64,000 nt of DNA from Patescibacteria group bacterium (GTDB lineage: Bacteria; Patescibacteriota; CPR2; UBA1875). The notes beneath the pieces are model-generated. The model worked only from the letters and a program-made list of their open reading frames with translations. It was not told the origin of the DNA and did not search any database. The position numbers and the translations under genes are program-made. Shown piece by piece: positions 1-63,701 of the stretch. Positions within the stretch are counted from its first letter, which is position 1. Every line of letters begins with the position of its first letter. Location: contig JBGSRK010000010.1 in assembly GCA_041737595.1 (NCBI GenBank), positions 1-64,000 of the forward strand, written 5' to 3'.

Positions 1-441
1 TTTCCACCCCTCTTCCCCCGCGACTCGAAACGGCCCGAACTAAGGGCTAGCTAGCAAAAATCCCCGTGTCCGCCCGAAACGTCGAAAAAATTGCCGAGAT
101 GAGCCCGCCCTCCTTACAGCCTTCGCGCAAGGCTACGGCGTACAAGTCGCATAAAGCTACGGAACGGGCAAGCGCGAACTGTAGAAACCCCAAAAAACCC
201 GAGGAAAACCCCGAAAGTGCCCCGATCAGGCCTCGTCCCGCCCGAAGTGGGTTCGAGCATCGTCGAGAACACACCACCAAAAATATATTCACGCCCTTGG
301 GTGAAAATATATTATTAATGAATTGGGGAATTGAGTACTCCTGCTTGATAAAAAGTTTATTTATAAAAATAGTGATTATTATTAGATTAGTTATTAGATA
401 ATCCATGAGATAATTGTTATGAATATCAGTGAGAAGCTCAG

Positions 442-462
442 CGAATCTCCTCAGGTCCACCA
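442..462 (+). other. tRNA-Ala/tmRNA-like 3'-end remnant (possible att site)
   Basis: CGAAT-CTCCT-CAGGTCC-ACCA reads as the end of a T-loop, a T-stem 3' strand, and an acceptor 3' strand with U70 and A73-CCA. No matching 5' half lies in the window. Confidence 0.6.
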
Positions 463-467
463 ACAAT

Positions 468-1469
468 ATGGAATCAAAAAAAATAAAAATTGCAGTAATT
501 TCGGGAGGACCTTCATCAGAACATGAAGTATCCCTTAAAAGTGCAAAAAATGTAATAAAGGCTCTTGATTTAACAAAATTTGAAATTTTGAGTATCCGAA
601 TTTCAAAGGATGGTTTATGGTTTGATGAAGTTAAAAACCTAAATTTAAGTGAAAAAGAAGGCTTATTACATCTTAAAAAAGAGAAGGTAGATATTGTATT
701 TATCACAATTCATGGTGAATATGGAGAAGATGGCACAATCCAAGAACTTTTAGAAAAACATAAAATAAAATATACAGGTTCAAATAGCAATGTTAGTAAA
801 GTTGCGATGGATAAGGTATCTTCTTCTAAAATTTTAACTGATGCAAATCTTAATGTTCCTTCATTTATTTCTATTAATAAACATGATTATGATCTAGAAA
901 AGAACAAATATATTGAAATCGCAATTGAAGCTTTTAATTTTCCACTTGTTGTAAAACCAACAGATAGGGGCTCTAGTGTAGGGATAAAAATTGTTTTAAA
1001 TAAAAATGAACTAGAACCAGCAATCTTGGGTGCTTTTAAATATTCAAAAAATATTATGATTCAAGAATTTATTAAAGGGCGTGAATTAACATGTGCAGTT
1101 TTGGAAGGTAAAAATGGAGAAGACATTCCCCTTATCCCAACCGAAATAGTGCCTGATTCAAATTATGACTTTTTTAATTATGATGCAAAATATCTCCCTG
1201 GTGCAAGTATTGAAATTACTCCACCCGATCTTTCTAAAAAAATGATATTAGATATTCAAAATGCTGCCATAAAAGCACATACTGGGATTGGATGTACTGG
1301 GATTTCAAGATCTGATTTTATTTTAAAAGATAAAGTTTTATATATTTTAGAAATTAATACCATCCCTGGGATGACAGAAACAAGTCTACTACCTCAAGGA
1401 GCAGCAGCCCTGGGGATTGAATTTTCAATACTAATTGAAACAATAATAGAATCTGCACTAAGAAAATAA
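468..1469 (+). CDS. ddl: D-alanine--D-alanine ligase
   Basis: GGPSSEHEVS, HGEYGEDG, GSSVG, YDAKY and EINTIPG motifs. ATG at 468 preferred over the track's GTG at 429. Confidence 0.95.
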   Translation: MESKKIKIAVISGGPSSEHEVSLKSAKNVIKALDLTKFEILSIRISKDGLWFDEVKNLNLSEKEGLLHLKKEKVDIVFITIHGEYGEDGTIQELLEKHKIKYTGSNSNVSKVAMDKVSSSKILTDANLNVPSFISINKHDYDLEKNKYIEIAIEAFNFPLVVKPTDRGSSVGIKIVLNKNELEPAILGAFKYSKNIMIQEFIKGRELTCAVLEGKNGEDIPLIPTEIVPDSNYDFFNYDAKYLPGASIEITPPDLSKKMILDIQNAAIKAHTGIGCTGISRSDFILKDKVLYILEINTIPGMTETSLLPQGAAALGIEFSILIETIIESALRK

Positions 1470-1483
1470 AAAAATAAAAAAAT

Positions 1484-1519
1484 AAAAAGCGGCTATTTTA
1501 CTAAATTTAACCGCTTTTT
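1484..1519. terminator. probable bidirectional terminator
   Basis: AAAAAGCGG...CCGCTTTTT inverted repeat between convergent genes. Confidence 0.55.
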
Positions 1520-1528
1520 ATGTTTTTA

Positions 1529-1702
1529 TTAAATTAAGTTAGAAAGATAATAAAATCCAATTGCTATAACTGTTAATATTGCGCTTCCGGCGAGAAATGC
1601 AATAAACATTCCAAAACCAAACTTAAAACCTTCTACAACCCCAAAACTATGACACTTAAAGTTTTCATTGATTTTTTTATCTTTGGTTTCTTCTTTTGCC
1701 AT
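1529..1702 (-). CDS. small membrane protein, 57 aa (not in ORF track)
   Basis: MAKEETKDKK...GFKFGFGMFIAFLAGSAILTVIAIGFYYLSNLI*; ATG lies 1 nt after the upstream gene's stop. Confidence 0.7.
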   Translation of the reverse strand: MAKEETKDKKINENFKCHSFGVVEGFKFGFGMFIAFLAGSAILTVIAIGFYYLSNLI

Positions 1703-2828: not shown

Positions 2829-3674
2829 TTATTCAAATTTTATTATCATAAACCTTTCTTTATTTGCATAATCAGATAATATTTTTATTTTGAAATTACT
2901 AAATATTTTTTCTGCCATCTTTATAATTAATTTGCTATGAGTATGATCAATTTCACAATAAATAACTGTACTTTTTGTTACATGTTTTTTTATTTGATTT
3001 AAAAATCTTTTATAAACCTCAGTTCCATTTATCCCACCATCTAGTGCAATAAGTGGTTCATATCGAATCACATCTTCATCAAGATATGGTAATCTTTCGT
3101 TTGGAATATATGGAAGATTTGTCACAACTATATCAAATTTATTATCCCCCCATGGTTCAAATAAATCTCCTTTTTTAAAATCTATTTCTAAATTAAGATT
3201 TTTGGCATTTTTTTTCGCGACAATAAGTGCTCTTTCTGATATATCTGATGCAGAGCAAATCGAATTAGGTAATTCTTTTTTTAATGCACATATTATAGCT
3301 CCACTACCTGTCCCAATATCTAAAATACTAATGTTTTGTTTATCATTTTTTATATTTTCAAGTACTTCTTGTATTAATATTTCTGTTTCTTGCCGAGGTA
3401 TTAAAACATCTTGATTTACAATAAAATCCATCCCCCAAAATTTTAATTTACCAATTATTTGCCAAACTGGTTCGTGTTTTGATCTTCTTTCGACCCAATT
3501 TTTATATGTTTTTTCTTGTTTTAAAGAAAGTTTTTTATTTAAATTCGCATAAATATATTCTAAATTTTTATTAAGTACTTGAAATAATAAAAAACTAGCA
3601 GAGATTTTAGAATCTCTTATTTTATTTTTATTTAATAAATCCTCTGCCCATTTTAGAGATTCTTTAATAGTCAT
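2829..3674 (-). CDS. prmC: release factor glutamine methyltransferase
   Basis: VLIPRQETE, LDIGTGSG, NLPY, and EPLIALDGG motifs. Confidence 0.95.
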   Translation of the reverse strand: MTIKESLKWAEDLLNKNKIRDSKISASFLLFQVLNKNLEYIYANLNKKLSLKQEKTYKNWVERRSKHEPVWQIIGKLKFWGMDFIVNQDVLIPRQETEILIQEVLENIKNDKQNISILDIGTGSGAIICALKKELPNSICSASDISERALIVAKKNAKNLNLEIDFKKGDLFEPWGDNKFDIVVTNLPYIPNERLPYLDEDVIRYEPLIALDGGINGTEVYKRFLNQIKKHVTKSTVIYCEIDHTHSKLIIKMAEKIFSNFKIKILSDYANKERFMIIKFE

Positions 3675-3680
3675 AAAAAG

Positions 3681-4958
3681 TTAAAAAATAAATTCTTTTT
3701 TATTTATCTGTACTTTATCGCCAATCCCCGCACCCTGTCTTTTAAGTTCTTTATCTACTCCAATTTTCTTCATAATATCTTTAAATCTTTGAACAGCATA
3801 AGGGTTAGAAAAATCAGTTCTAACTGCAAATCTTTCGATTTTAGGACCAGTTAATACATATTTATCATTTTCTTTTTTAACCTCAAAAAAGTCCTTAGAA
3901 ACAATATCTTCCATAGTAAAAACTTTATAATCTTCTACGGGTTCTATTTTTTTATTCTTTTTCGCTTCTTTAGCAAGTTTCTTTTCTATTTCATGTAAAA
4001 GTTCTGGTAAATTTTTATGAGCCACCGCTGATATTAAAATAATTTTACTTTTAACTACTTCTTGTACTTTACTTAGTTTTTTTTGAAGCTCATCTGGCGG
4101 TACGGATTCAATTTTATTAATAATAACTATTTCGGGTTTGTCTGAAAGATCAATTACATAGTTTTTTAATTCTTTTCTAATCACCTGATAATCATCTTTT
4201 AAATTTTTATGCAGACCATCAAGAAAATGGACTAAAACCTTTGTTCTTTCAATATGCCTAAGAAAATCATCACCAAGACCCTTTCCTTTAGAAGCCCCTT
4301 CAATTAAACCTGGAATATCTGCTGCAATAAAACCCTTTTCTACTCCATAAGTCCCTTCCTCTATGACTCCAAGATTTGGGATTAATGTTGTAAATTCATA
4401 ATCAGCAATTTTTGGTTTTGCGGCCGAAACAACAGAAAGTAAGGTAGATTTCCCAACATTTGGGAGCCCAACAAACCCGACATCTGCAACCATCTTTAAT
4501 TCAAGTATGATATTTAATTCCCCACCTGGTTCGCCTAGTTCAGCCACTCTTGGTGTTTGTCTTACTGAAGTTGTAAAATGAGCATTCCCAAAACCTCCTT
4601 CACCACCTTTTGAAACAACAATTTCTCCGGCTTCAGAGAGATCCCCTATATGATCCCCTGTTTCTTCATTTATTAAAATTGTCCCAACTGGAACTTTAAT
4701 AATTAAATCTTCACCATTTTTACCATGACATTTTCTTTTTCCACCTCTTTCTCCACTTTTTGCAACAAGCTTATGATGAGTTTTAAAATAATATAATGTA
4801 TTAAGATTTTCGTCCGCCTGAAAAATTACACTCCCGCCTTTTCCTCCATCACCACCATCTGGGCCACCAAATTCTCGATATTTTTCATGCAAAAAAGAGA
4901 CGATTCCATCGCCCCCATTACCTGCCTTTACATATATTGATACCTTATCGCAAAAAAT
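3681..4958 (-). CDS. obgE: GTPase ObgE/CgtA
   Basis: GGPDGGDGG, GLPNVGKS, YEFTT, DIPG, NKI motifs and a C-terminal OCT-like domain. The frame extends to an ATT at 4958 (FCDKVSIYVKAGNGGDG) after GGAGG. Confidence 0.95.
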   Translation of the reverse strand: MFCDKVSIYVKAGNGGDGIVSFLHEKYREFGGPDGGDGGKGGSVIFQADENLNTLYYFKTHHKLVAKSGERGGKRKCHGKNGEDLIIKVPVGTILINEETGDHIGDLSEAGEIVVSKGGEGGFGNAHFTTSVRQTPRVAELGEPGGELNIILELKMVADVGFVGLPNVGKSTLLSVVSAAKPKIADYEFTTLIPNLGVIEEGTYGVEKGFIAADIPGLIEGASKGKGLGDDFLRHIERTKVLVHFLDGLHKNLKDDYQVIRKELKNYVIDLSDKPEIVIINKIESVPPDELQKKLSKVQEVVKSKIILISAVAHKNLPELLHEIEKKLAKEAKKNKKIEPVEDYKVFTMEDIVSKDFFEVKKENDKYVLTGPKIERFAVRTDFSNPYAVQRFKDIMKKIGVDKELKRQGAGIGDKVQINKKEFIF

Positions 4959-52410: not shown

Positions 52411-53583
52411 TTATTTTTTAAGTACTTCTAACCCGGGTAATTTCTTTCCTGATAAAAATTCTAATGTTGCTCCCCCACCAGTTGAAACAAAATCAAATTT
52501 AAGATCTAAATCATTTACAGCAGCCAAAGTATCTCCACCACCAATGATAGAATTCGCATTCGATTGACTTATTATTTTTGCAACTGCGATAGTCCCTTTT
52601 GCACTATTTTTGTGTTCAGAAATTCCAACTGGCCCATTCCAAAAAATCATTCCAGCAAATTTCAAAGGTTCTGAATATTTTGAGATAGTATTGGGCCCCA
52701 CATCAACAATAATGTCAGATTTTTCAACTTCATCTATCGATTTTGATTCAGTTTTGGCTGAAATATTTATACTTTTAGCACAAATAACATCATCTGGGAG
52801 AATAAGTTCAACTCCTTTTTCATCACATAATCTTTTAATATCATCCGCCACATTTTCAGATTCTGGTTCATAAAGAGATTTGCCGACATCGTAACCTTCT
52901 GCTGCCAAAAAAGTATTTGCCATTGCTCCGCCGATTATTAAAACATCTGCTTTTTGAATTAAGCCAGAAAGCACATCAATTTTATCAGATATTTTTGCTC
53001 CTCCAGAAACAACCACAAATGGTCTCTTGGGGTTTAGGAGTATATTATCTAGATATGTAGCTTCTTCTATTAATGAAAAACCTGCATAAGATGACAAAAA
53101 TTCTGTAATAGCAACAACAGAAGCATGATTTCGATGTGAAGCAGAAAAAGCATCATTTACATATAAATCACATCCTTCAGCTAATTTATGTGCAAAATCT
53201 TTATCGTTTTTTTCTTCAACATCATAAAATCTAACATTTTCAAGGAGTAAAACATCCCCAGATTTTGAAGATTCTATAGCTTTTAACTTTTCATGTCCGA
53301 TACAATCAGTTACAAAAGTAATTTTTTTATCTAAGTTTTTTTCGAGTTCGGAAACAATTATTTTTAAACTAAATTCTTTATTTTTTTTACCTTCAGGACG
53401 TCCAAAATGTGAACATAAAATCACTGTCGCGCCTTCAGAAAGAAGCCACTTTATAGTTTTTAAACTTGATAAAATCCTTTCATTATTCGTTACTTTGCCA
53501 GAAGCAATAGGAACATTATAATCAACTCGAACAAGGACTTTTTTACCCCTTACAGAAATATCTTTAATATTTTTTAATTTCAT
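52411..53583 (-). CDS. pgk: phosphoglycerate kinase
   Basis: RVDYNVP, SHFGRP, LLENVRF, GGGDT and STGGGA motifs. Confidence 0.97.
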   Translation of the reverse strand: MKLKNIKDISVRGKKVLVRVDYNVPIASGKVTNNERILSSLKTIKWLLSEGATVILCSHFGRPEGKKNKEFSLKIIVSELEKNLDKKITFVTDCIGHEKLKAIESSKSGDVLLLENVRFYDVEEKNDKDFAHKLAEGCDLYVNDAFSASHRNHASVVAITEFLSSYAGFSLIEEATYLDNILLNPKRPFVVVSGGAKISDKIDVLSGLIQKADVLIIGGAMANTFLAAEGYDVGKSLYEPESENVADDIKRLCDEKGVELILPDDVICAKSINISAKTESKSIDEVEKSDIIVDVGPNTISKYSEPLKFAGMIFWNGPVGISEHKNSAKGTIAVAKIISQSNANSIIGGGDTLAAVNDLDLKFDFVSTGGGATLEFLSGKKLPGLEVLKK

Positions 53584-53643
53584 TTATTGCCATCCCTTGT
53601 TCTTTTGTAATTTTAAAATTAATTTAAAATTTAGAACTTAAAA

Positions 53644-54657
53644 TTATAAATTTCTAACGACTAGATCTGTAAGATCTGCAAGTCGGTTAGCGTATCCCCA
53701 TTCATTATCATACCAACCGAATACTTTAAAAAAATTACCACCAATATTCTTTATTAAAAGACCGTCAAAAATAGATGAATAATTACTTCCTCTCCAATCA
53801 GTTGAAACGGTTGGATCCATAGAAACAAAAAGATAATTTTTCATTTGCCCCCTTGATGCTTTTAGCATTGCTTTTGTTATTTCTTCTGGGGTTGTTTCTT
53901 TTTCTAATTCAACAACTATGTCATTTATTGAAACCGTAGGAGTCGGAACACGGATTGCGACACCATCCATAATATCTTCTAATTCTGGGATAACTTCTTT
54001 AAGTGCTTTTGCGGCACCTGTAGTGGTCGGAATAATATTAACGGCTGCGGCCCTTGCTCTTCTTAAATCTTCATGTGGAACATCTAATATTCTTTGATCA
54101 TTAGTATAAGAATGAACCGTAGTTAAAAACCCTCTTTTGACACCAAAAGAATCAACCAAAACCTTCATAATTGGAGCAAGACCATTAGTTGTACAAGAGG
54201 CATTTGAAATAATATGATGCTCTTTTGAATTGTATTTTTCTTCATTAACTCCTAATACAATTGTTATATCATGGTTTTTAGCAGGTGCGGAAATAACTAC
54301 TTTTTTTGCACCAGCTCTAATATGTTGACCAGCGAGTTCTCCGTCAGTAAAAAAACCTGTGCATTCAAGTACTACATCAACTCCAAGTTTTTTCCATGGA
54401 AGTTTTGACGGAATTTTTTCTGCAAATGTTTTAATTTTTTTACCATTTACCTTAATACAATCCTTTCCTGGTTCTATTTTTGCTTTCCATGTACCATAAT
54501 TTGAATCAAATTTTAATAAATGCGCAAGAGTCTCATTATCTGTAAGATCATTAATTGCAACTACTTGAATTTTTTTATTATATTTTTCTGTCAAAATCTT
54601 AAATACTTGTCGACCTATTCGTCCAAAACCGTTAATTGCTACTTTTGTCATTTTCAT
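53644..54657 (-). CDS. gap: glyceraldehyde-3-phosphate dehydrogenase
   Basis: INGFGRIGR, ASCTTN and WYDNEWGY motifs. Confidence 0.98.
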   Translation of the reverse strand: MKMTKVAINGFGRIGRQVFKILTEKYNKKIQVVAINDLTDNETLAHLLKFDSNYGTWKAKIEPGKDCIKVNGKKIKTFAEKIPSKLPWKKLGVDVVLECTGFFTDGELAGQHIRAGAKKVVISAPAKNHDITIVLGVNEEKYNSKEHHIISNASCTTNGLAPIMKVLVDSFGVKRGFLTTVHSYTNDQRILDVPHEDLRRARAAAVNIIPTTTGAAKALKEVIPELEDIMDGVAIRVPTPTVSINDIVVELEKETTPEEITKAMLKASRGQMKNYLFVSMDPTVSTDWRGSNYSSIFDGLLIKNIGGNFFKVFGWYDNEWGYANRLADLTDLVVRNL

Positions 54658-54947: not shown

Positions 54948-55553
54948 TTATAATATTGTTTTACCGCGTTTATTATAGCGGTCATATTCATTAAAATTTC
55001 CGCCTGGATTAACTTTTTTCAATACTTCGTGTCTAGCTTTCACTGCAATATCATTTTTAAGTACATTATCCATTTGGCTCATATGTTCTGGGTCGGAAAT
55101 AACTCCTTTTTCTTCCATGGCCATTTCTGAACTATTTATCGCAACATCTCTTGTCAATTTTCTTTGTGATGGAACTCCTCTTTTAATATATTCTATTTCT
55201 TTTTTATAAGAGTCTCTCGTAGATTCTCTACCAGTAATTACATCTTTAATTTTCTCAAATTTTGTTGTTGGTTCTTCTTCGGATGCTAGTTTTTCTTCCA
55301 ATTCGTCGATTCTTTTATTATCTTCTTCGGCCATTTTTTGAGCCATTTCTTTATCATCTACTCTCAAGTAATTTTCATCACTTTTATCAGCTACAAGTGC
55401 ATTTCTTGCTTTTTCTATTGCACTTGTTTCTAAGGATTTTAATTGCCCAGTAGTTAAATCACTTAACCCTAATATTTTTTTTCTTTCATGAAGATCTTCA
55501 GATTTATAATCTACATCTTCGTTTTCTGCTTGATCTTTTTCTAATTCAGTCAT
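54948..55553 (-). CDS. hypothetical charged helical protein
   Basis: AAGGAG SD, 201-aa open frame. Confidence 0.75.
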   Translation of the reverse strand: MTELEKDQAENEDVDYKSEDLHERKKILGLSDLTTGQLKSLETSAIEKARNALVADKSDENYLRVDDKEMAQKMAEEDNKRIDELEEKLASEEEPTTKFEKIKDVITGRESTRDSYKKEIEYIKRGVPSQRKLTRDVAINSSEMAMEEKGVISDPEHMSQMDNVLKNDIAVKARHEVLKKVNPGGNFNEYDRYNKRGKTIL

Positions 55554-55736
55554 ATAAATAACTCCTTATAAAATTTTGAACTGCCTATATAATACTCCAA
55601 TTAATATTTGTATTGCAAGGGGGGAAGGTTATTTTACGTTATTGTGAACAATAGCACGACAATCTATTTTCAACCACTCAGGGGTTCTTATACCTTGACC
55701 ACTAAAAAAGCCAGCGAGGTGCAAGCACTTCTCTGG

Positions 55737-55756
55737 CTTTTTGGCAGTCCCAAGGG
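55737..55756 (-). repeat. duplicated 3' end of tRNA-Glu (att-like)
   Basis: CTTTTTGGCAGTCCCAAGGG is identical to 55919-55938. Confidence 0.85.
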
Positions 55757-55820
55757 AACGACAAGTCGTATTCTCACCGCTATTCATAGTTATATACTAG
55801 TGAAAGCAGAGCACTTTAGC

Positions 55821-55847
55821 TGTCATTCTGAACTTGTTTCAGAATCT
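55821..55847. repeat. REP-like palindrome
   Basis: TGTCATTCTGAACTTGTTTCAGAATCT with an ATTCTGAA/TTCAGAAT stem and the same GTCATT...AATCT frame as the other elements. Confidence 0.65.
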
Positions 55848-55923
55848 ATGTTTTTATCATGCAGGGCTTCTTACCCCTTGAAACTAAAAAGAGCCCGAGC
55901 GGATAAACCGTTCTGACTCTTTT

Positions 55924-55998
55924 TGGCAGTCCCAAGGGGATTCGAACCCCTGTTACTAGGATGAAAACCTAGCGTCCTAACCCCTAGACGATGGGACC
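55924..55998 (-). tRNA. tRNA-Glu(TTC)
   Basis: GGTCCCATCGTCTAGGGGTTAGGACGCTAGG-TTTTCAT-CCTAGTAACAGGGGTTCGAATCCCCTTGGGACTGCCA folds as a cloverleaf with encoded CCA. Confidence 0.97.
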
Positions 55999-56247
55999 AT
56001 AAAAATTTATGTCACGTAATAACCTTTCTCTGATCTGCCCGTGACTTTTAAGCTGTTTTTCTCTCTTTCGAGCATCTGCATAGTTTTTATACTGCTCTAG
56101 GTGTGCAATAACAAACGGTGCTCTTCCTTTAGTTGATTTATTATAACCTCTATTATGTTGATATAGTCTAGATTCAAAATTTTTTGTTATACCAATGTAG
56201 AATCCTTTGTCCCTATCACTTTTCAAGATATAAACATAACAAATCAT
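55984..56247 (-). CDS. small GIY-YIG nuclease
   Basis: YVYILKS...FYIGIT...RLYQHN.G...A.KREKQLKS. The last codons (GPIV*) lie inside tRNA-Glu. Confidence 0.92.
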   Translation of the reverse strand: MICYVYILKSDRDKGFYIGITKNFESRLYQHNRGYNKSTKGRAPFVIAHLEQYKNYADARKREKQLKSHGQIRERLLRDINFYGPIV

Positions 56248-56269
56248 TATTCGATTATAAAGGTTTTTT

Positions 56270-56313
56270 GTCCTAACCTCTAGACCCTGCCTGCCGCAGG
56301 CGGGGATGGGACC
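56270..56313 (-). pseudogene. 5' fragment of tRNA-Glu interrupted by a 19-bp palindrome
   Basis: GGTCCCATC[CCCGCCTGCGGCAGGCAGG]GTCTAGAGGTTAGGAC matches tRNA nt 1-25 at 24/25 once the insert is removed. Confidence 0.85.
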
Positions 56314-56326
56314 GTGGACGCCACAA

Positions 56327-56355
56327 ATTATACCATTCTTGAGCGTAAATTTCAA
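56327..56355 (-). promoter_or_regulatory. sigma70 promoter upstream of the tRNA fragment
   Basis: TTGAAA-17-TATAAT with extended TG. Confidence 0.7.
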
Positions 56356-56473
56356 TTCTAAATTATAAAACAAATACTAAAGCTATAAAGATAGTTATTA
56401 AATCTTTTTTTATATTATTATTTGGATTAGTTATGCTCATATCCACCTTAATGAATCAGATGGTTTATTCCAT

Positions 56474-57004
56474 CTATCTCTCAAGCCACTGCTGTTTAAG
56501 ATAAACTTCAGAATCGTGATTATTTTGTAACCAATCTCGAAGTGAAAAAATATTAAGAACTACTAATGGTTTTGCCTTCATGATTTTGTTATTTAGTTTG
56601 TAATAAATTTCTTCCTTGCCACCCAGAAATCCTAAGGCTATCGACTTCTTAATATTTGAAGTTTTTTTATTAACCCCATATGCACTTAAATCTAAAGTTG
56701 GTGTTATTTTCCAAAACCTTGGCAGATTATCATATGTGAATCCTTGATCACCTATATTCCCAACCTTCTCGACTCCCAGTTCTTGCATATTCTTATTATT
56801 TAAACCAACAAAAACAGTAAAATCAGGCTTTTTTGCGAACATTTTTCTAAGTTTTTCTTCTGCTGGTCTTTTATTAAATTTTTGATTGTAACAATTCATT
56901 AATAACCCATATTTTGGTAATTTTTGATAATCGAAAACAGCCAATACATAAGTAAGTCCTAAGCTTGTTGGTATTTCTAAAATATCACCAATTTTTATGT
57001 TCAT
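56474..57004 (-). CDS. putative immunity protein (Imm26-like)
   Basis: Immediately downstream of the RHS toxin; KIGDILEIPT..GLTY...YG.L N-terminal pattern; GGAG SD. Confidence 0.7.
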   Translation of the reverse strand: MNIKIGDILEIPTSLGLTYVLAVFDYQKLPKYGLLMNCYNQKFNKRPAEEKLRKMFAKKPDFTVFVGLNNKNMQELGVEKVGNIGDQGFTYDNLPRFWKITPTLDLSAYGVNKKTSNIKKSIALGFLGGKEEIYYKLNNKIMKAKPLVVLNIFSLRDWLQNNHDSEVYLKQQWLER

Positions 57005-57032: not shown

Positions 57033-60000
57033 TTATCTTAATAGGGCTTTCGTACCTTCATTTATGTAATGGCTATAATTAGGGTTTAGTGTAGATATCC
57101 CATTAATTTTATTTGCTAAATTAGTCAAGCCACCGTTATTATCTATTAATATCTGTTCAACGCCTCTCGCCTGAGCGTAAGTAAGATTACTATAAACTTC
57201 CTGCACGATACGACCATCAGAAGACCACTCTTTTGCCCTTCGTACTATATCAACCGTTCTCCCTACGTAGTTTATAACCCCAGCAGATTTCTCCACATAT
57301 ACCGAATAGGTCCTGTCTGCTAACCCATTAGCGGCGGTAATGGTTGTACTAGATGCCACCAAGGCTTTGGCCAATATCGTTACGGAAGCTGCTGTAATGC
57401 CAGCGCTAATAGCGCCACTAATTGCCCCGCCAATTGCACCCGCAGTACTGCCCTTACTAAAACCATTATTAAATGAGTTACCGATGCTTGACTTTTTACC
57501 ACTCGCCCTGTCGATAGCCACCTGGGTAAGACCTCCAGCAACCCCACCAGCCACATAACCGGCAAGTGCACCCGTTATTGCACCTGCAACGAATGCACCA
57601 GCAACATAACCAGCACCTGTGCCAAGCCCTCCCGTAGCTAAGCCGACCACCGCACCCACCGCAACACCAACTACCGTCCCAACAACCCCACCAACAATGG
57701 CTGCAGCATTGTTTTTCACCCAGCTAAAAAAACCTTTACCACTAGGGTCAATCCTAGTAATTGGGTTATTGGCCGTGTAAAGATATGGATTTTGATCTAG
57801 CGCAAATTCACTGGCCACCACAGGATCTTTTGAAAAGAACCGGCCCGTTTCGGGATCATACATACGAACCTTCATGAAGTACTGTGCAAGGTCAGAGTCG
57901 TACCAATAAGAAGCATATAATCTAGGGTTAAGTTCATTGAGATTTGCAGGTACGGTGTCTGATATAGTTTCCGACTTAAGAACGTTACCCCAAGAATCAT
58001 ATTCATAATTAACCACCTTAGCACCGGTGGTGTCCGTAAGCCCCAGTACATCGCCCTTAGCATTTTTTACATATTGATACGTTTTAAATGTCCCATCTGA
58101 ATTGTATATAGAGATACTGATAAGGTTTTCATTTTCATCCCAAGTATATGCCCTAATCAAATTGCCATTTAAATCAGACTCAGAAATCAGCATATCTCCG
58201 TCATAAGAGAAATTTATATAAGATTTAGTACCCGCTGTGTCGGTTTTAATACGTTGGATTCTCCGTCCAGAATTTGAATCATAAATGTACTCAATAACAA
58301 CACCAGAAGGCAAAATTGCTTTCTTGAGCTTATTTGAACTATCATATTCATAGTTGGTAATACCTGATTTACTGTTGTTGCGACTTGTAACATTCCCTGA
58401 TTTATCATAAGAAAAAGTAGCCGAATAACTATTATTTTCGTCGTTGGCCGTGTAATTATACTGAGTAAGCTTATTACCATCACCGTTCTCATCATAAGTA
58501 TAATTTATAACGCCATCAGAACCATTTCGTGTGAGTCGGTTACCGGCAATATCATAACTATAACTATATTTTTCATCTTCAGTTAATTGGTTCCTTACAT
58601 CATAGGAATAATTAAATCTTTCTTGCCTTACTTTATCAATTATCGAGGTAACGTTTGAATTGGCATCATATTCATAACCAAACGACGCCAGAACCATAGC
58701 ATTGCGATTAGTAGTTACCGTTGATATAGTACGTCCACCATTGTCATAACCAAATCTAGTTATATCACCATTTGCTTTTGTAATTTGAGTAATTTTACCT
58801 TCCGCATCTCGCAATATTTGACCACTTGCCAGTACAGCGCCATTACTATTTTGTATATTAGTCACACCAGTCACCTGGTTATTCACATCGTAAGTCAGAC
58901 TCACTGTATTTGTTGCGGAAACAGATTGAGTGATATTACCGGCTGCATCTACAGCATCTCTTGCAATACCATTAGTATTTGTTGCAATTTGAGTAGGTCT
59001 ATTAACTGGGTCATAACTTACTGAAACGGTTTCGGAACCAGATGAAACCTGGAGATCATCAAAGGAAGCATTAGTTTGATAAGTCGCAAGTTCTATTTGA
59101 CCTTCTTTAAGTCCACGCGTAAAGGTGTAATCAATAACTTTTACATTATTTACATATAGTTTTACATTTTCACCCAAAGACACAATTTTTATGTTGTACC
59201 ATGTATTTACAGCCAAAGTCCCAGTACCATTTGCGTATTGTTCTGTCTGACCAGTTATTACTGCCCCGGCACGCCATAATGAACCGATGTAGCCAATATA
59301 ATAGTTATTGGCTCCACTAGAGCGATAAAGTAATCTAAAATACGGAGCAGTGGTTGAAGAACGGCGTACTCTAAATTCAACTGTACCATTAGAAAAGTTT
59401 AGATTTCGAATAGTGCTTTTACGATAAGTAGTTATAGCAGTTGAACTATCGGTTTGATTATATGTACCGCCAGTTAGATTCCAGCTACCAGATATAGGCG
59501 CAAGTGAATCTTGGCGTGTAATATTAAAATCGTTTTTATATAACAATTTATTCACACTTGTAGTACCAGTAACTGCTGTTACATTATGATTTTTGTCATA
59601 AATATTATTTGAGCCACCCTCAGGAGTTACTGAATTTACAACAGCGCCCATCTTGTCATAAGTAGAAGTAGAGGTATTCCCCTTTTCGTCAGTAGTAGAA
59701 ACAATATTCCCATTTCTATCATAAGTTACATTTATCGTATTACCTTCTGGGTCGGTCTGTGAAATAATTTGATTTAATACATCAAAGTTATAAGTAAAAA
59801 TCTTTCCTTTTGCGTTTATCATTTTTACTTTATTCCCCACCTTGTCATATTCAAATTGAGTAGTAGCACCAGCTTCATCTGTCGCTTTTATCATACGACC
59901 CAGTAAATCATAATCCATTAATCTTGCATTGCTTTTAGGGTCAGTTGTCTTGATTACATTACCACCTACACTATATTCAGTAATAATTGTTGTTCCTAAA

Positions 60001-63000
60001 GGATCAGTAACTTTTACTGGCCGATTAAGTCCGTCATATTCAATAGTAGAAATCTTACCAAGCGTAGATATATTCTTTATAATTAGCCCAATACTGTTAT
60101 ATTCGTTAGTCATAATTTCTCCTTTAGGAGTAACAGCCGTAAGAATATCTCCCTCCGAATTATAGGTATAACGGCTTACTTGTAATTTAGGGTCAGTAAC
60201 CGAAACTATTCTGCCCATCGCATCATACCCATAAGTAGTAACCTTGGCGTTACTGTCGGTAACACTTAAAAGAAGTCTTTTACCATCTGTAGAATAAGTA
60301 TATCTTGTAATTTGACCCTTCATATCTGTAGAAGAAGTCATATCATTCCCTACATATACATAAGTAGTTTTATTACCATCAGGATAAGTTGTCTCTAATA
60401 GATTACGATTAACATCATATTTATAATTTATGGAGTAGTAATAAATATCGTTTGTAGCAAGATCAGGGAATGTTTTTGTAAGATTAAAATTTATATCATA
60501 AACATATTTTTCACGATAATTTTTAGCATTTGTCATCGTAGACAACATATTTGCACTATCAAACCCCAATTTAGTCACTCGACCAAGAGGGTCAGTAATA
60601 GTTGTTAATCTATCGACATATGTAATATTTGTTGCATTTCCGAGAGCATCCGTAATTGCATTAACTTTGTCCCCAGTATATGTTATCGAAGTAACAGCAC
60701 CAGCTTTATCCCTAAATCTTTCTAATTTACTTGTTTCAATATATGAATATTCATAATAATTATCTTGACCATCAAACACTTTAGATAACACTCCATTTGC
60801 ATCATATTCGTAACGAACCGCTTGATTTGCATTATTATTAACCTTTATTAGGCGACTGGCGGCATTATACTCAAACGCAAGTGACCGATTCTGATTAATT
60901 ATACGTGAACAAAGACCATTAACATATTCATAACTTAAAGTATTACCTAATAAATTCGTTTTACGACTTATTTTCCCATCGGTACCAAAATAGCTTTTGT
61001 TACCAGATTTATCTAAAAGATAATATGTTCCATCCAAATTTTTAGTTAGAGATACAGTTATTCCTGCTGGTTTCTTATAGGTACCATCAGTATTTTTTGT
61101 ATATACATTAATATTTCCTGATCCATTTTTGTAATAGATATTTTCAGGATCAGATATATACAACCTCTCCTCAAAACTAGCACTCCAACCACTCCCTAAT
61201 ACACCTTGATCTTTCCAAATTTCAGGGTTATAAGTACTATATATAAGCCCACTTAATGGTTGAGCAGATGTATTTGTAAATCTCGCCGACATCTGCCAGC
61301 TGGCGGAGCCTTGAGAAACCTTTAAGGTAAGTGAGTTCCAGCCCTGTCGCAAATTTGCAGATACTATGTCACTATCAAGAGTTAGTGTTCTAGTAATTTC
61401 TCGAGAAATAAGAACTGTTCCATTTAACCAAGCCTTAATCCCATCATCAGAACCTAATCTTAATTGTACTGTCTGATCTGACGGTGAATAGACATAAACA
61501 TGAGCGTAGGCAGAAACATTAGTGGCCGTATCTACTTGGAAATTTGATAAACGGTGAAAAACCTGATTAAGTCTAACTTGAGTAGTCTCTGTTTCTGTTT
61601 CGGGGGCCCATAGATTATTACTTCCAGTCATACCTGGGCTTGGTTTCATAGTAGCTTCACCAGGTATAAATGCTTTAGTCAGCCTACTAGCAACCACTGC
61701 TTCTTTATATGGACCATTAAAAAGCCATGTCTTTATATACCCATTTGCATCTTGATTAAAAGTCTTATTAGAAAGCTGATTTGAATCATAGCTTCTGCTA
61801 AATGAAACACCACCAATACTTGAAGGTACTGACATATCAGTAGAACTATAAGAAATTCCACCCGTTACAGCATCAACTGGCCCTACTTTAGAATAAATCG
61901 AGTCAGACCCAATATGAGTTATAGAAGAAAATGATGGAGCACTTACCGTAACGGTTTTGAGACCCTTAACTACACCTTGATCAGAAAACCAAGTAATACC
62001 TGGCTGTATCATATCCCATTGAAGAGTATATGACCCAGCAATAGTTGGCACCTTCACTTTTGCTAAAACCGTTGTTATCCCACCCTTAGCAGCCACATTT
62101 GCTGGTATATCTGTCTGTAGCCCTGATTTTAAGACGGCACCGGTAGTATTATTAACCCAGTGATAACTAACCTTAGTTTGGCTAGATAACCAAACATTTC
62201 TACCCGTGTTTACAACTGTAATTGGAACTTCCGTCGTTGTACCTGCAAACATGGACGGTACATCAGTAGGATAATAAGTAGCATTATAATCATTATAACT
62301 AACGGTTAATTTAGGATAACTATTACTGTAGTCAGGGTTATTCTTGGAAACCCAGGTGCGATAGCCCCAAGTACCTTCTGCGGTAGAGGCAAAACCAATA
62401 GAACCAATCCAAGATCCCGTGCTATTTCCACCTTCATACCAATGTCTCACTAGACTCGATACATCTTGATGGTACCAACCATATGGGTTTGCTTGTGAAG
62501 CAGACCCCCAACTATTAAGAAAAGCTGGTTTATTATTCCAATAAACATTAGTGGGGTTATAAGAAGCAGTTGTATAAGCAGTTACACTACTTGTAGGACA
62601 AACTCCATTACAGTTACCATATTGGTAAACATCAAAAGCAGCACTTAAAATTCGAGCACCAGAAAGGTCAGGTAAAGTAAACTTTGTTTCGGTTCTCATA
62701 ATCCCTTTTGTTGAACCAGTCCCTACATATAATGCACGTTGATCCCACGATGTTGTTGTAGGATAACCACTTTGGACATAAGAATCCTCGGTTACATATT
62801 GAGTAATTGTAGGATCAATATAAATTGGGAATACACGCTCAGGTGCACTAAGCCACCTTAAGTCAGGTTTTACTGTTAAACGATAACCACCAGTAATAGT
62901 GCTTAAAACAGTGGGTACATTATAATTATATGAATTCTGTTCATTATCTTTACCACCTTTCGAATCCCACATTAAAAAACGTGGGATACGAAATATTTCA

Positions 63001-63701
63001 GTATTAGTTCTTGCACTTACAATTTTATATGAACCATCACCTATCGCCGCAATTGTCCCACCACTTACAGCTAAGTCAAAAGAAAATTCTCCTAAAGAAC
63101 TCTGTTTATAAAGTGTAATATATTCTTTTATACCATCATTAACTGAGTAAAAAGTTAAATCAGTATTTGGTATTACATTGGCATAATTAAGTTTATTAGT
63201 ACCAGTTGTATAAGTTTTTGATGAAGCAGTTGATTTTGTAAGAAGCGTAGCACCTGTTTTAGATTTGAATTCACCAATATTGGCAGTAATAGAAACACCA
63301 TCTTTATTTAATGAAAAACTTTTTTTTGAAAGATTCTTACTGAGTCTTAAATCAAAACTATTTTTATTATTTTTATAATCATCACCATATAAAAGACTAC
63401 TTAAAAGACCAGTATCCGTAATATTTGAATCAATGTCCTCAAAAGTCCTTACATTATTTATTGTACTTTCATAATGCATAGGTATTTCGGCTGTTACTAG
63501 CTCCTTACTACCATCGGACTTAAGATAAATTTTGCTATTTTCTGTTCTTTTTGATGTAAGTTCTATTTTACCAGTGGCGGGTGGGGTAGGTTCTGCCTCA
63601 GCCGTAGCATCAGCAGCAGCAAAAGCAACTGATGGAGTAACTGGTAAAAGAGAAAACATCATTATAAATATTAAAAACCAGGAAAACATTTTTCTAAGCA
63701 T
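57033..63701 (-). CDS. secreted WapA-like RHS polymorphic toxin with C-terminal URI-fold nuclease
   Basis: Signal peptide, many YD repeats, RHS core (RMYDPETGRFFSKDP...NPYLY..NNP..RIDPSG), glycine-zipper segment, tip YVGRT..RR...ARGVEQ.LI...NKIN (Tox-URI2-like). Confidence 0.92.
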   Translation of the reverse strand: MLRKMFSWFLIFIMMFSLLPVTPSVAFAAADATAEAEPTPPATGKIELTSKRTENSKIYLKSDGSKELVTAEIPMHYESTINNVRTFEDIDSNITDTGLLSSLLYGDDYKNNKNSFDLRLSKNLSKKSFSLNKDGVSITANIGEFKSKTGATLLTKSTASSKTYTTGTNKLNYANVIPNTDLTFYSVNDGIKEYITLYKQSSLGEFSFDLAVSGGTIAAIGDGSYKIVSARTNTEIFRIPRFLMWDSKGGKDNEQNSYNYNVPTVLSTITGGYRLTVKPDLRWLSAPERVFPIYIDPTITQYVTEDSYVQSGYPTTTSWDQRALYVGTGSTKGIMRTETKFTLPDLSGARILSAAFDVYQYGNCNGVCPTSSVTAYTTASYNPTNVYWNNKPAFLNSWGSASQANPYGWYHQDVSSLVRHWYEGGNSTGSWIGSIGFASTAEGTWGYRTWVSKNNPDYSNSYPKLTVSYNDYNATYYPTDVPSMFAGTTTEVPITVVNTGRNVWLSSQTKVSYHWVNNTTGAVLKSGLQTDIPANVAAKGGITTVLAKVKVPTIAGSYTLQWDMIQPGITWFSDQGVVKGLKTVTVSAPSFSSITHIGSDSIYSKVGPVDAVTGGISYSSTDMSVPSSIGGVSFSRSYDSNQLSNKTFNQDANGYIKTWLFNGPYKEAVVASRLTKAFIPGEATMKPSPGMTGSNNLWAPETETETTQVRLNQVFHRLSNFQVDTATNVSAYAHVYVYSPSDQTVQLRLGSDDGIKAWLNGTVLISREITRTLTLDSDIVSANLRQGWNSLTLKVSQGSASWQMSARFTNTSAQPLSGLIYSTYNPEIWKDQGVLGSGWSASFEERLYISDPENIYYKNGSGNINVYTKNTDGTYKKPAGITVSLTKNLDGTYYLLDKSGNKSYFGTDGKISRKTNLLGNTLSYEYVNGLCSRIINQNRSLAFEYNAASRLIKVNNNANQAVRYEYDANGVLSKVFDGQDNYYEYSYIETSKLERFRDKAGAVTSITYTGDKVNAITDALGNATNITYVDRLTTITDPLGRVTKLGFDSANMLSTMTNAKNYREKYVYDINFNLTKTFPDLATNDIYYYSINYKYDVNRNLLETTYPDGNKTTYVYVGNDMTSSTDMKGQITRYTYSTDGKRLLLSVTDSNAKVTTYGYDAMGRIVSVTDPKLQVSRYTYNSEGDILTAVTPKGEIMTNEYNSIGLIIKNISTLGKISTIEYDGLNRPVKVTDPLGTTIITEYSVGGNVIKTTDPKSNARLMDYDLLGRMIKATDEAGATTQFEYDKVGNKVKMINAKGKIFTYNFDVLNQIISQTDPEGNTINVTYDRNGNIVSTTDEKGNTSTSTYDKMGAVVNSVTPEGGSNNIYDKNHNVTAVTGTTSVNKLLYKNDFNITRQDSLAPISGSWNLTGGTYNQTDSSTAITTYRKSTIRNLNFSNGTVEFRVRRSSTTAPYFRLLYRSSGANNYYIGYIGSLWRAGAVITGQTEQYANGTGTLAVNTWYNIKIVSLGENVKLYVNNVKVIDYTFTRGLKEGQIELATYQTNASFDDLQVSSGSETVSVSYDPVNRPTQIATNTNGIARDAVDAAGNITQSVSATNTVSLTYDVNNQVTGVTNIQNSNGAVLASGQILRDAEGKITQITKANGDITRFGYDNGGRTISTVTTNRNAMVLASFGYEYDANSNVTSIIDKVRQERFNYSYDVRNQLTEDEKYSYSYDIAGNRLTRNGSDGVINYTYDENGDGNKLTQYNYTANDENNSYSATFSYDKSGNVTSRNNSKSGITNYEYDSSNKLKKAILPSGVVIEYIYDSNSGRRIQRIKTDTAGTKSYINFSYDGDMLISESDLNGNLIRAYTWDENENLISISIYNSDGTFKTYQYVKNAKGDVLGLTDTTGAKVVNYEYDSWGNVLKSETISDTVPANLNELNPRLYASYWYDSDLAQYFMKVRMYDPETGRFFSKDPVVASEFALDQNPYLYTANNPITRIDPSGKGFFSWVKNNAAAIVGGVVGTVVGVAVGAVVGLATGGLGTGAGYVAGAFVAGAITGALAGYVAGGVAGGLTQVAIDRASGKKSSIGNSFNNGFSKGSTAGAIGGAISGAISAGITAASVTILAKALVASSTTITAANGLADRTYSVYVEKSAGVINYVGRTVDIVRRAKEWSSDGRIVQEVYSNLTYAQARGVEQILIDNNGGLTNLANKINGISTLNPNYSHYINEGTKALLR

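Follow-up and report, generated by a model that had tools for sequence, protein, structure and literature searches.

In the 64,000-nucleotide (nt) stretch of DNA analysed here, positions 1 to 64,000 of contig JBGSRK010000010.1 from a Patescibacteria group bacterium (hereafter the window), the minus strand carries a gene for a small GIY-YIG nuclease that lies behind a 5′ remnant of a tRNA-Glu gene and ends inside an intact tRNA-Glu gene. From sequence comparisons we hold, with moderate confidence, that this locus belongs to a widespread family of selfish cassettes which invade tRNA genes without an integrase and keep one copy of the tRNA intact. The cassette would consist of a minimal GIY-YIG gene of the Slx1/UPF0213 type and a cognate GC-rich palindrome of 20 base pairs (bp), lodged in a tRNA gene whose displaced pieces would persist as dead fragments. 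That such cassettes move, and by what mechanism, we infer from the traces described below.

Linkage to tRNA genes and tRNA fragments

Relatives of the locus were collected by scanning one genome per species with a peptide pattern that is blind to tRNAs. The 80 loci obtained (408 kb in total, with 89 nuclease-gene matches) come mostly from Patescibacteria, Bacteroidota, Omnitrophota and unclassified assemblies. At least one tRNA adjoins 58 of the 89 open reading frames (ORFs): a tRNA starts at most 150 nt after the nuclease match in 43 cases and ends at most 150 nt before it in 18, and all 61 adjoining tRNAs are on the strand of the ORF. Since the same 408 kb contain just 27 other tRNAs, adjacency by chance would be expected in only about 1%. 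Twelve tRNA isotypes are involved across the family.

An earlier reading of this DNA from its sequence (the original prediction) turned on whether other GIY-YIG loci, too, have duplicated tRNA 5′ ends and stop codons within tRNAs, and both are found. Of 41 testable loci, 23 have ahead of the ORF a copy of the 5′ part of the downstream tRNA (a copy being accepted at a score of at least 30 that also exceeded all 30 shuffles), and in 18 of these 23 the copy begins at tRNA nt 1 or 2. Of the 43 ORFs followed by a tRNA, 18 stop before it, 17 inside it and 8 past it, which makes 25 whose stop codon is inside or past the tRNA. Two other parts of the prediction did not survive the survey. Insertion had been placed at tRNA 5′ ends; the breaks fall inside the tRNA, in the D arm, the anticodon loop or the T loop. 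Nor is the arrangement restricted to the 5′ side: there is a mirror class, in which the order is intact tRNA, ORF and 3′ fragment, and in which 12 of 18 loci have, 25–60 nt past the stop codon, a repeat of the tRNA 3′ part that runs to its last nucleotide. In eight mirror-class loci the repeat is perfect over 17–18 nt from the T loop onward, and the class has a conserved motif ahead of the T-loop break. Taking both sides together, a fragment copy is present within 900 nt of 40 of the 57 ORF-adjoining tRNAs and of 5 of the 27 other tRNAs in the same loci.

In eight loci complementary 5′ and 3′ halves of a tRNA gene flank the ORF together with an intact tRNA. The tRNA-Ala genes are split into nt 1–36 and 37 onward (L018), 1–36 and 37–75 (L047) or 1–34 and 35–73 (L045), and a tRNA-Ser gene into 1–36 and 37–86 (L070). 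For tRNA-Gln the 5′ fragment is always 1–15 and the 3′ fragment 18 onward (L010), 18–72 (L032) or 19–74 (L057); for tRNA-Arg (L027) the fragments are 1–42 and 51–76. These eight loci are most simply accounted for by one insertion of a cassette that carried its own tRNA. The halves do not make up a working spliced gene, because the anticodon stem is unpaired in L047 and the T loop is replaced by a hairpin in L018.

All eight stops beyond the tRNA belong to tRNA-Gln loci (L010, L013, L024, L031, L046, L057, L072 and L079), in which the ORF is open through the whole tRNA. Because these ORFs stop only past the tRNA, the predicted proteins end in translated tRNA, as does the relative P0003. Peptide signatures of translated tRNA arms were recognized in 18 of 154 family proteins versus 1 in a reversed control; in at least three of the 18 the signature lies within the nuclease domain and is false.

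Palindrome and inverted repeats

In 11 of the 80 loci a perfect 20-bp palindrome, CCTGCCTGCCGGCAGGCAGG, stands exactly at the tRNA-fragment break, in all 11 no more than about 50 nt away from the ORF. These loci involve tRNA-Leu, Arg, Asn, Gly and fMet in Patescibacteria, Bacteroidota and Omnitrophota. A single further match, weak and far from any ORF, corresponds to the rate in shuffled loci (10 in 20 shuffled sets). The palindrome is a clean 20-bp insert without target duplication, placed after tRNA nt 9 in the window and after nt ~13, 16, 22, 33 and 53 elsewhere. The insert in the window is 19 nt long and differs from CCTGCCTGCCGGCAGGCAGG by one substitution and one missing central base. 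The original prediction had described the element as a nuclease gene with a regenerated tRNA; the conserved palindrome has to be added to the unit.

Other clades have other ends. In the Gln clade CCCCGCCA and its complement surround the ORF and tRNA-Gln and are located in the D loop; in L046 and L072 this inverted repeat is closed into a hairpin. In the Ala clade TCCCGAT and ATCGGGA surround the ORF and the tRNA, in the anticodon.

The intact tRNA of the Ala and Gln cassettes is enclosed by leader/trailer stems of 13–17 bp whose sequences vary while complementarity is kept (L047, 1197..1313; L045, 884..1001; L018, 3254..3366; L032, 3220..3334; L057, 3222..3342). These might represent processing stems or, alternatively, cruciforms in the DNA. 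They occur at 11 of the 57 adjoining tRNAs versus 1.2% of shuffles; because all but one are Ala or Gln, they are not a general feature of the family. In L070 the split tRNA-Ser has a 37-nt double hairpin in its anticodon loop; the hairpin is present at either side of the cassette (2829..2880 and 3252..3300) and forms, with the flanking tRNA bases, a direct repeat of about 54 nt.

Anatomy of the locus in the window

All features of the locus are on the minus strand and are given here in the direction of transcription. The promoter of the resident tRNA-Glu gene (56327..56355) reads TTGAAA-17 nt-TG-TATAAT, as had been predicted apart from the TG, and thus has an extended −10 box; it matches the consensus at 11 of 12 positions. 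It is the only strong promoter found, and 13 nt separate its −10 box from nt 1 of the 5′ remnant, which fits the earlier proposal that the element rides the tRNA promoter. No second promoter able to serve the ORF was detected, a weak match at 56274..56246 ending within the start codon. Then follow tRNA nt 1–9 (56305..56313, by sequence match), the worn palindrome (56286..56304) and tRNA nt 10–25 with one mismatch (56270..56285; repeat family D2, 94% identity). The copy of tRNA nt 1–25 upstream of the ORF that had been predicted is therefore real, and only its contiguity was wrong, the palindrome separating nt 9 from nt 10. An A+T-rich leader of 22 nt (56248..56269), in which direct reading revealed no clear Shine-Dalgarno sequence, connects the remnant to the start codon.

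The nuclease gene (55984..56247; 87 amino acids and stop codon) overlaps the intact tRNA-Glu(UUC) (55924..55998), which has an encoded CCA end, is recognized by ARAGORN and Rfam (62.5 bits) and is the sole tRNA in the window. The final five codons of the ORF (G, P, I, V, stop) are tRNA nt 1–15, as originally stated, and the TAG is thus tRNA nt 13–15. Directly 3′ of the tRNA is a terminator-like hairpin with a U run (hairpin A, 55886..55924; inverted repeat I3, −16.8 kcal/mol, z −4.5). Alignment delimits the next segment, flank A plus 77 nt of unique sequence (55757..55885), which leads to a 3′ remnant that the original prediction had overlooked: an exact 20-nt copy of tRNA nt 61–75 plus 5 nt (55737..55756; repeat family D1). 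It starts 167 nt past the intact tRNA, the copies of the direct repeat being 182 nt apart. Beyond it lie about 95 nt of diverged yet alignable flank with its own terminator-like hairpin (hairpin B and flank B, 55650..55736; I1, −18.2 kcal/mol). These are homologous to hairpin A and flank A; the stems of the two hairpins are the same in shape and different in sequence. Hairpin B and flank B are probably the original downstream flank of the resident tRNA gene.

Neither tRNA copy is a chance match, because none of 300 shuffles attained either score: the 16-nt part of the 5′ remnant scores 27 (shuffle maximum 22) and the 3′ remnant 30. The window fits the scheme of the split loci, with nt 1–25 as 5′ remnant, nt 61–75 and an older terminator as 3′ remnant, and the middle missing. 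From the 3′ remnant and the older terminator 167 nt beyond the tRNA it follows that the cassette probably extends from about 56269 to 55757 and includes a whole replacement tRNA. The element had been estimated at ~300 bp and called integrase-free. The latter is borne out between the repeats; the size increases to ~510 bp if the unit carries the whole tRNA.

Traces of other kinds of element were also looked for. There is no integrase between or beside the repeats of the window, and the GIY-YIG gene is the only inter-repeat ORF with a family match. A direct repeat of a tRNA 3′ part, as expected of an integrase island, is nevertheless present (the exact 20 nt of D1). The downstream tRNA is complete and not a 3′ half, as it would be if the ORF lay in a tRNA intron, and no group I intron or ribozyme core is found at the locus, the tRNA being the only Rfam match in 55000..57000. 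A tblastn search with 154 family proteins revealed no trace of a further nuclease gene in the stretch from the tRNA to the 3′ remnant, only weak matches to the tRNA itself. Unlike in the Ala and Gln clades, inverted end repeats are not found around the cassette of the window (score 15, reached by 35 of 100 shuffles), and by eye there is no leader/trailer stem at its tRNA. RNA of the 5′ remnant does not fold more stably than shuffles (z −0.2 and −1.2).

As to the surroundings, the minus strand holds 48 of the 59 ORFs of at least 120 amino acids in the window as well as the tRNA and the nuclease gene. Upstream of the tRNA promoter is a gene for an RHS-repeat protein of 2222 amino acids (57033..63701, minus strand; Pfam RHS_repeat, E 5e-70), followed, directly upstream of the promoter, by an ORF of 176 amino acids without family match (56474..57004, minus strand); the two are possibly a toxin/immunity pair. 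Inspection by eye suggested a GIY-YIG-like motif within the final ~90 residues of the RHS protein, but neither Pfam (no match) nor hhalign (probability 6%) bore this out, and it was rejected. On the side of hairpin B the outer flank includes an ORF of 201 amino acids. Just downstream of the locus are the glycolysis genes gap and pgk (52411..54657).

The nuclease

The 87-amino-acid product matches Pfam GIY-YIG (PF01541) with 54.7 bits (cut-off 22.6; E 1.2e-14), as the original prediction had it. In an alignment of 40 relatives Y6, Y17, R27, H31 and E63 do not vary, and conservation at G19 is 90% or more; the invariant Tyr, Arg, His and Glu are presumably the catalytic positions of GIY-YIG nucleases. 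The structure is predicted with high model confidence (pLDDT, the predicted local distance difference test, 94.3), and its fold, three strands plus helices, matches GIY-YIG domains. The best fold matches are BH0048 (1zg2, E 1.4e-4) and the nuclease domain of Slx1 (E ~1e-3), with template-modelling (TM) scores of 0.58–0.70; those to I-TevI (E 0.25) and UvrC (E 1.5) are far weaker. The only sequence matches in the Protein Data Bank are the UPF0213 proteins EF2693 and BH0048 (1ywl, 1zg2; E 1e-4). Judged by these matches and the predicted fold, the nuclease belongs to the Slx1/UPF0213 branch and not to the branch of I-TevI and the classic homing endonucleases, which the original prediction had mentioned as one kind of GIY-YIG enzyme. 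A predicted homodimer scored 0.28 against a mark of 0.42 and is used neither for nor against any reading.

With the nuclease as query, HMMER detects 4371 cluster representatives (E up to 0.001); the best 150 of these have 78–214 amino acids, the longest being double domains. Models of defence systems gave no match, profiles of phage families only weak endonuclease matches, and NCBIfam matches were far below the cut-offs.

Signs of movement

Signs of movement are seen in close relatives at different tRNA genes and in repeated remnants and units. The locus nearest to that of the window, L001 (61% identity), is from Omnitrophota and has the layout of the window at tRNA-fMet: a TATAAT box, a tRNA-fMet 5′ fragment, the palindrome, 8 more tRNA nt and an ORF whose TAG is inside the tRNA. 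The intact tRNA-fMet of L001 (1474..1760) carries in its anticodon loop a group I intron (1498..1682; Rfam RF00028, 61.2 bits), so that two kinds of selfish element occupy this one tRNA gene. L021 at tRNA-Glu and L077 at tRNA-Lys are 78% identical in DNA sequence over the unit.

L015 has a series of three 5′ fragments, and serial remnants are likewise found in L017, with five 3′ fragments, and in L051, with two. Those of L017 are copies of the last 17 nt of tRNA-Leu that follow the unit downstream at a spacing of ~127 nt (3703..4232) and have the appearance of an array, made up of remnants or else of small repeat units. Tandem units of ORF and fragment are found in L033, L048 and the overlapping contigs L078 and L080. 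The latter overlap in 1..468 and 2931..3450, respectively, and are two contigs of one assembly, which points to units of tRNA-Met fragment plus ORF arranged in tandem, the array having been broken by the assembler.

Comparison with known systems

SegB of T-even phages is a free-standing GIY-YIG homing endonuclease encoded in the phage tRNA gene cluster, longer than the protein of the window and equipped with a DNA-binding part. Its cuts fall within tRNA genes, its linkage to tRNAs extends over many isotypes and across phages, and by way of homologous recombination it causes segments of tRNA plus segB to be amplified (PMC13096335). It prefers a short motif (PMC13096335), which to us looks similar to a T-loop sequence. 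The likeness to the present loci lies in a GIY-YIG gene beside tRNA genes and in duplicated segments of tRNA plus nuclease (PMC13096335, PMC2330249). The protein of the window differs in having only 87 amino acids and an Slx1/UPF0213-like predicted fold, and its gene is chromosomal and sits inside a split or partly duplicated tRNA with a conserved palindrome. As in Seg-like systems the gene is in or beside its presumed target; unlike in these the nuclease is not joined to a DNA-binding domain. SegB is an experimental precedent for the proposed nuclease-made break that would let repair copy the unit.

A second parallel is the atp6 gene of Allomyces, for which Paquin, Laforest and Lang (1994, 2000; cited in PMC2800124) reportedly described a free-standing mitochondrial GIY-YIG gene that brings a replacement piece of the host gene. 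There as here the endonuclease gene travels with part of its target, which preserves the function, the displaced piece stays as a pseudo-fragment, and GC-rich hairpin elements are found at the sites; the targets there, however, are organellar and protein-coding, whereas here they are bacterial tRNA genes. Genomic islands and prophages that target tRNA genes by means of tyrosine integrases are alike in that direct repeats of part of the tRNA flank the insert and the tRNA is regenerated. They differ from the present units, which have no integrase, are only ~0.3–0.5 kb in size, show 5′-side duplications and whole tRNAs that are split, and have an ORF overlapping the tRNA.

The UPF0213 proteins (1zg2, 1ywl) and Slx1 are the closest in sequence and fold and are likewise minimal domains without added modules. 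Slx1 acts together with Slx4 on branched DNA. Dunin-Horkawicz et al. (2006; PMC1564403) assign such bacterial proteins to the Slx1 family, in which they represent the domain at its minimum; the passages of that paper considered here contain no mention of a linkage to tRNA genes. A search of the literature, whose coverage did not extend to subscription journals and supplements, revealed nothing on cellular minimal GIY-YIG genes in split or duplicated tRNA genes, or on the palindrome.

Proposed mechanism and alternatives

The cassette would work as follows. The resident tRNA-Glu promoter would transcribe the 5′ remnant, the promoterless nuclease gene and the intact tRNA-Glu with its terminator. 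The nuclease would cut either the tRNA DNA as such or a hairpin or cruciform arising in it or at the palindrome, and recombinational repair would copy the cassette into the broken tRNA gene. Since the protein is Slx1-like and has no DNA-binding domain, recognition of a hairpin or cruciform (arms of the tRNA gene, palindrome) is favoured over that of a long sequence, which is speculative. Linkage to an essential tRNA would guard the cassette against loss, and the cut of RNase P at the tRNA 5′ end would strip the stop codon from the message and thereby keep the nuclease low. This last idea, already part of the original prediction, is compatible with the 25 of 43 relatives whose stop codons fall inside or past the tRNA.

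It should be said that a number of observations weigh against this interpretation. The nuclease is a single domain of 87 amino acids without DNA-binding module, which makes homing to a long site doubtful. The intact tRNA retains the sequences at which the fragments are broken, and hence nothing obvious shields it from the nuclease. The protein has only one close relative (63% identity), which, since its last five residues match those of the window protein, also ends inside a tRNA-Glu. There is a single copy of the unit in the window, and there both the palindrome and the 5′ remnant are worn, so that this copy may be old or inactive; because nt 26–60 of the resident tRNA are absent, the two remnants may have arisen in separate events. 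In the family 31 of the 89 relatives have no tRNA within 150 nt. A −10-like box precedes 5 of 21 other 5′ fragments (versus 9.3% of random positions and 10 of 43 intact tRNAs), a frequency that speaks neither for nor against. Finally, only a quick tree is available, which is poorly resolved. On it the hairpin type changes 15 times (mean of shuffles 31.3, minimum 26), the tRNA isotype 26 times (40.6, 36), the order of ORF and tRNA 8 times (13.5, 9) and the host phylum 37 times (47.3, 41). Labels are shared among related rows through common descent, and the counts are thus a sign of clustering, not of co-evolution. The clustering of hairpin types is counted in favour of the cassette. The labels cluster by phylum as well, and the order Val-ORF-Ala is common to four Patescibacteria loci, so that much of the pattern could be vertical inheritance.

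Three other explanations have to be considered. REP/RAYT and Rickettsia palindromic elements are short GC-rich palindromes that are tied to one nuclease gene or inserted in structured genes. Similarly, the nuclease could be the trans-acting partner of mobile palindromes that insert into loops of tRNA-like DNA, its gene being mostly stationary beside the tRNA and the tRNA duplications being by-products of repair. This is unlikely in our estimation, but there is something to be said for it: the palindrome is a discrete insert of 20 bp without target duplication at varied tRNA positions (nt 9, 13, 16, 22, 33, 53), L027 has two palindrome copies and L007 two hairpin types in one pseudo-tRNA, the hairpins are closed in L046 and L072 where the relatives L010, L032 and L057 show open inverted repeats around ORF and tRNA, and the predicted fold resembles that of a structure-specific nuclease. 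The enzyme family, however, is another one than in REP/RAYT, the palindromes are not seen dispersed (one copy in the 64-kb window), the near-perfect copies all keep to within ~50 nt of the ORF across loci, and the complementary split halves around ORF plus tRNA are left unexplained. Alternatively, an Slx1-like host gene could be resident at tRNA genes and co-transcribed with them, for repair of heavily transcribed tRNA DNA or for RNA processing, the fragments being scars of local duplication. The strict, same-strand and often overlapping linkage, the order Val-ORF-Ala kept in four loci and the complementary leader/trailer stems, which look like a processing stem (11 of 57 versus 1.2% of shuffles), would suit such a gene. 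Dunin-Horkawicz et al. (2006; PMC1564403) moreover regard prokaryotic Slx1-like proteins as largely vertically inherited and note a fusion to a tRNA methyltransferase-like domain. Against it are the twelve tRNA isotypes, the close relatives at different tRNAs (Glu in the window and fMet in L001; Glu in L021 and Lys in L077), the dead fragments, serial remnants and tandem units, the patchy spread across phyla and the identical palindromes in distant phyla. We regard this explanation as quite improbable.

That the repeats are att sites of an integrase-driven element, with the nuclease as cargo or as the last remnant of an island or satellite moved in trans, we consider very unlikely. It would account for the perfect 17–18-nt repeats from the T loop to the 3′ end in the eight mirror-class loci, and the 20-nt 3′ repeat of the window resembles classic tRNA att sites, which are said to be described by Williams (2002; cited in PMC9897764). 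Against it are the lack of an integrase between or beside the repeats of the window, the size of the units (merely ~300–500 bp), the 5′-side duplications and splits in D loop and anticodon, which are unlike traces of integrases, and the fact that the end repeats follow the clades of the nuclease.

Implications

The reading preferred here, that of a selfish cassette invading tRNA genes, may be extended. The family would then constitute a new class of prokaryotic mobile DNA, made up of a minimal Slx1-like GIY-YIG gene together with either a cognate palindrome or inverted end repeats and, in many cases, a tRNA of its own, which enters the loops of tRNA genes via hairpin or cruciform DNA without integrase or transposase, supplies a replacement tRNA and throttles itself as tRNA processing removes the stop codon. 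In this full form the proposal is possible but doubtful; that the element is of a mechanistically new class has a fair chance.

If the interpretation is true, the abundant small bacterial GIY-YIG (UPF0213-like) proteins, so far without a function, would be given one, and many tRNA fragments and ORFs that end as translated tRNA in genome annotation would be accounted for. The pair of a compact nuclease and a palindrome can be tested at the bench. Beside integrases and introns there would be a third way for selfish DNA to inhabit tRNA genes, and this would have a bearing on how the small genomes of Patescibacteria keep or replace their single-copy tRNA genes.

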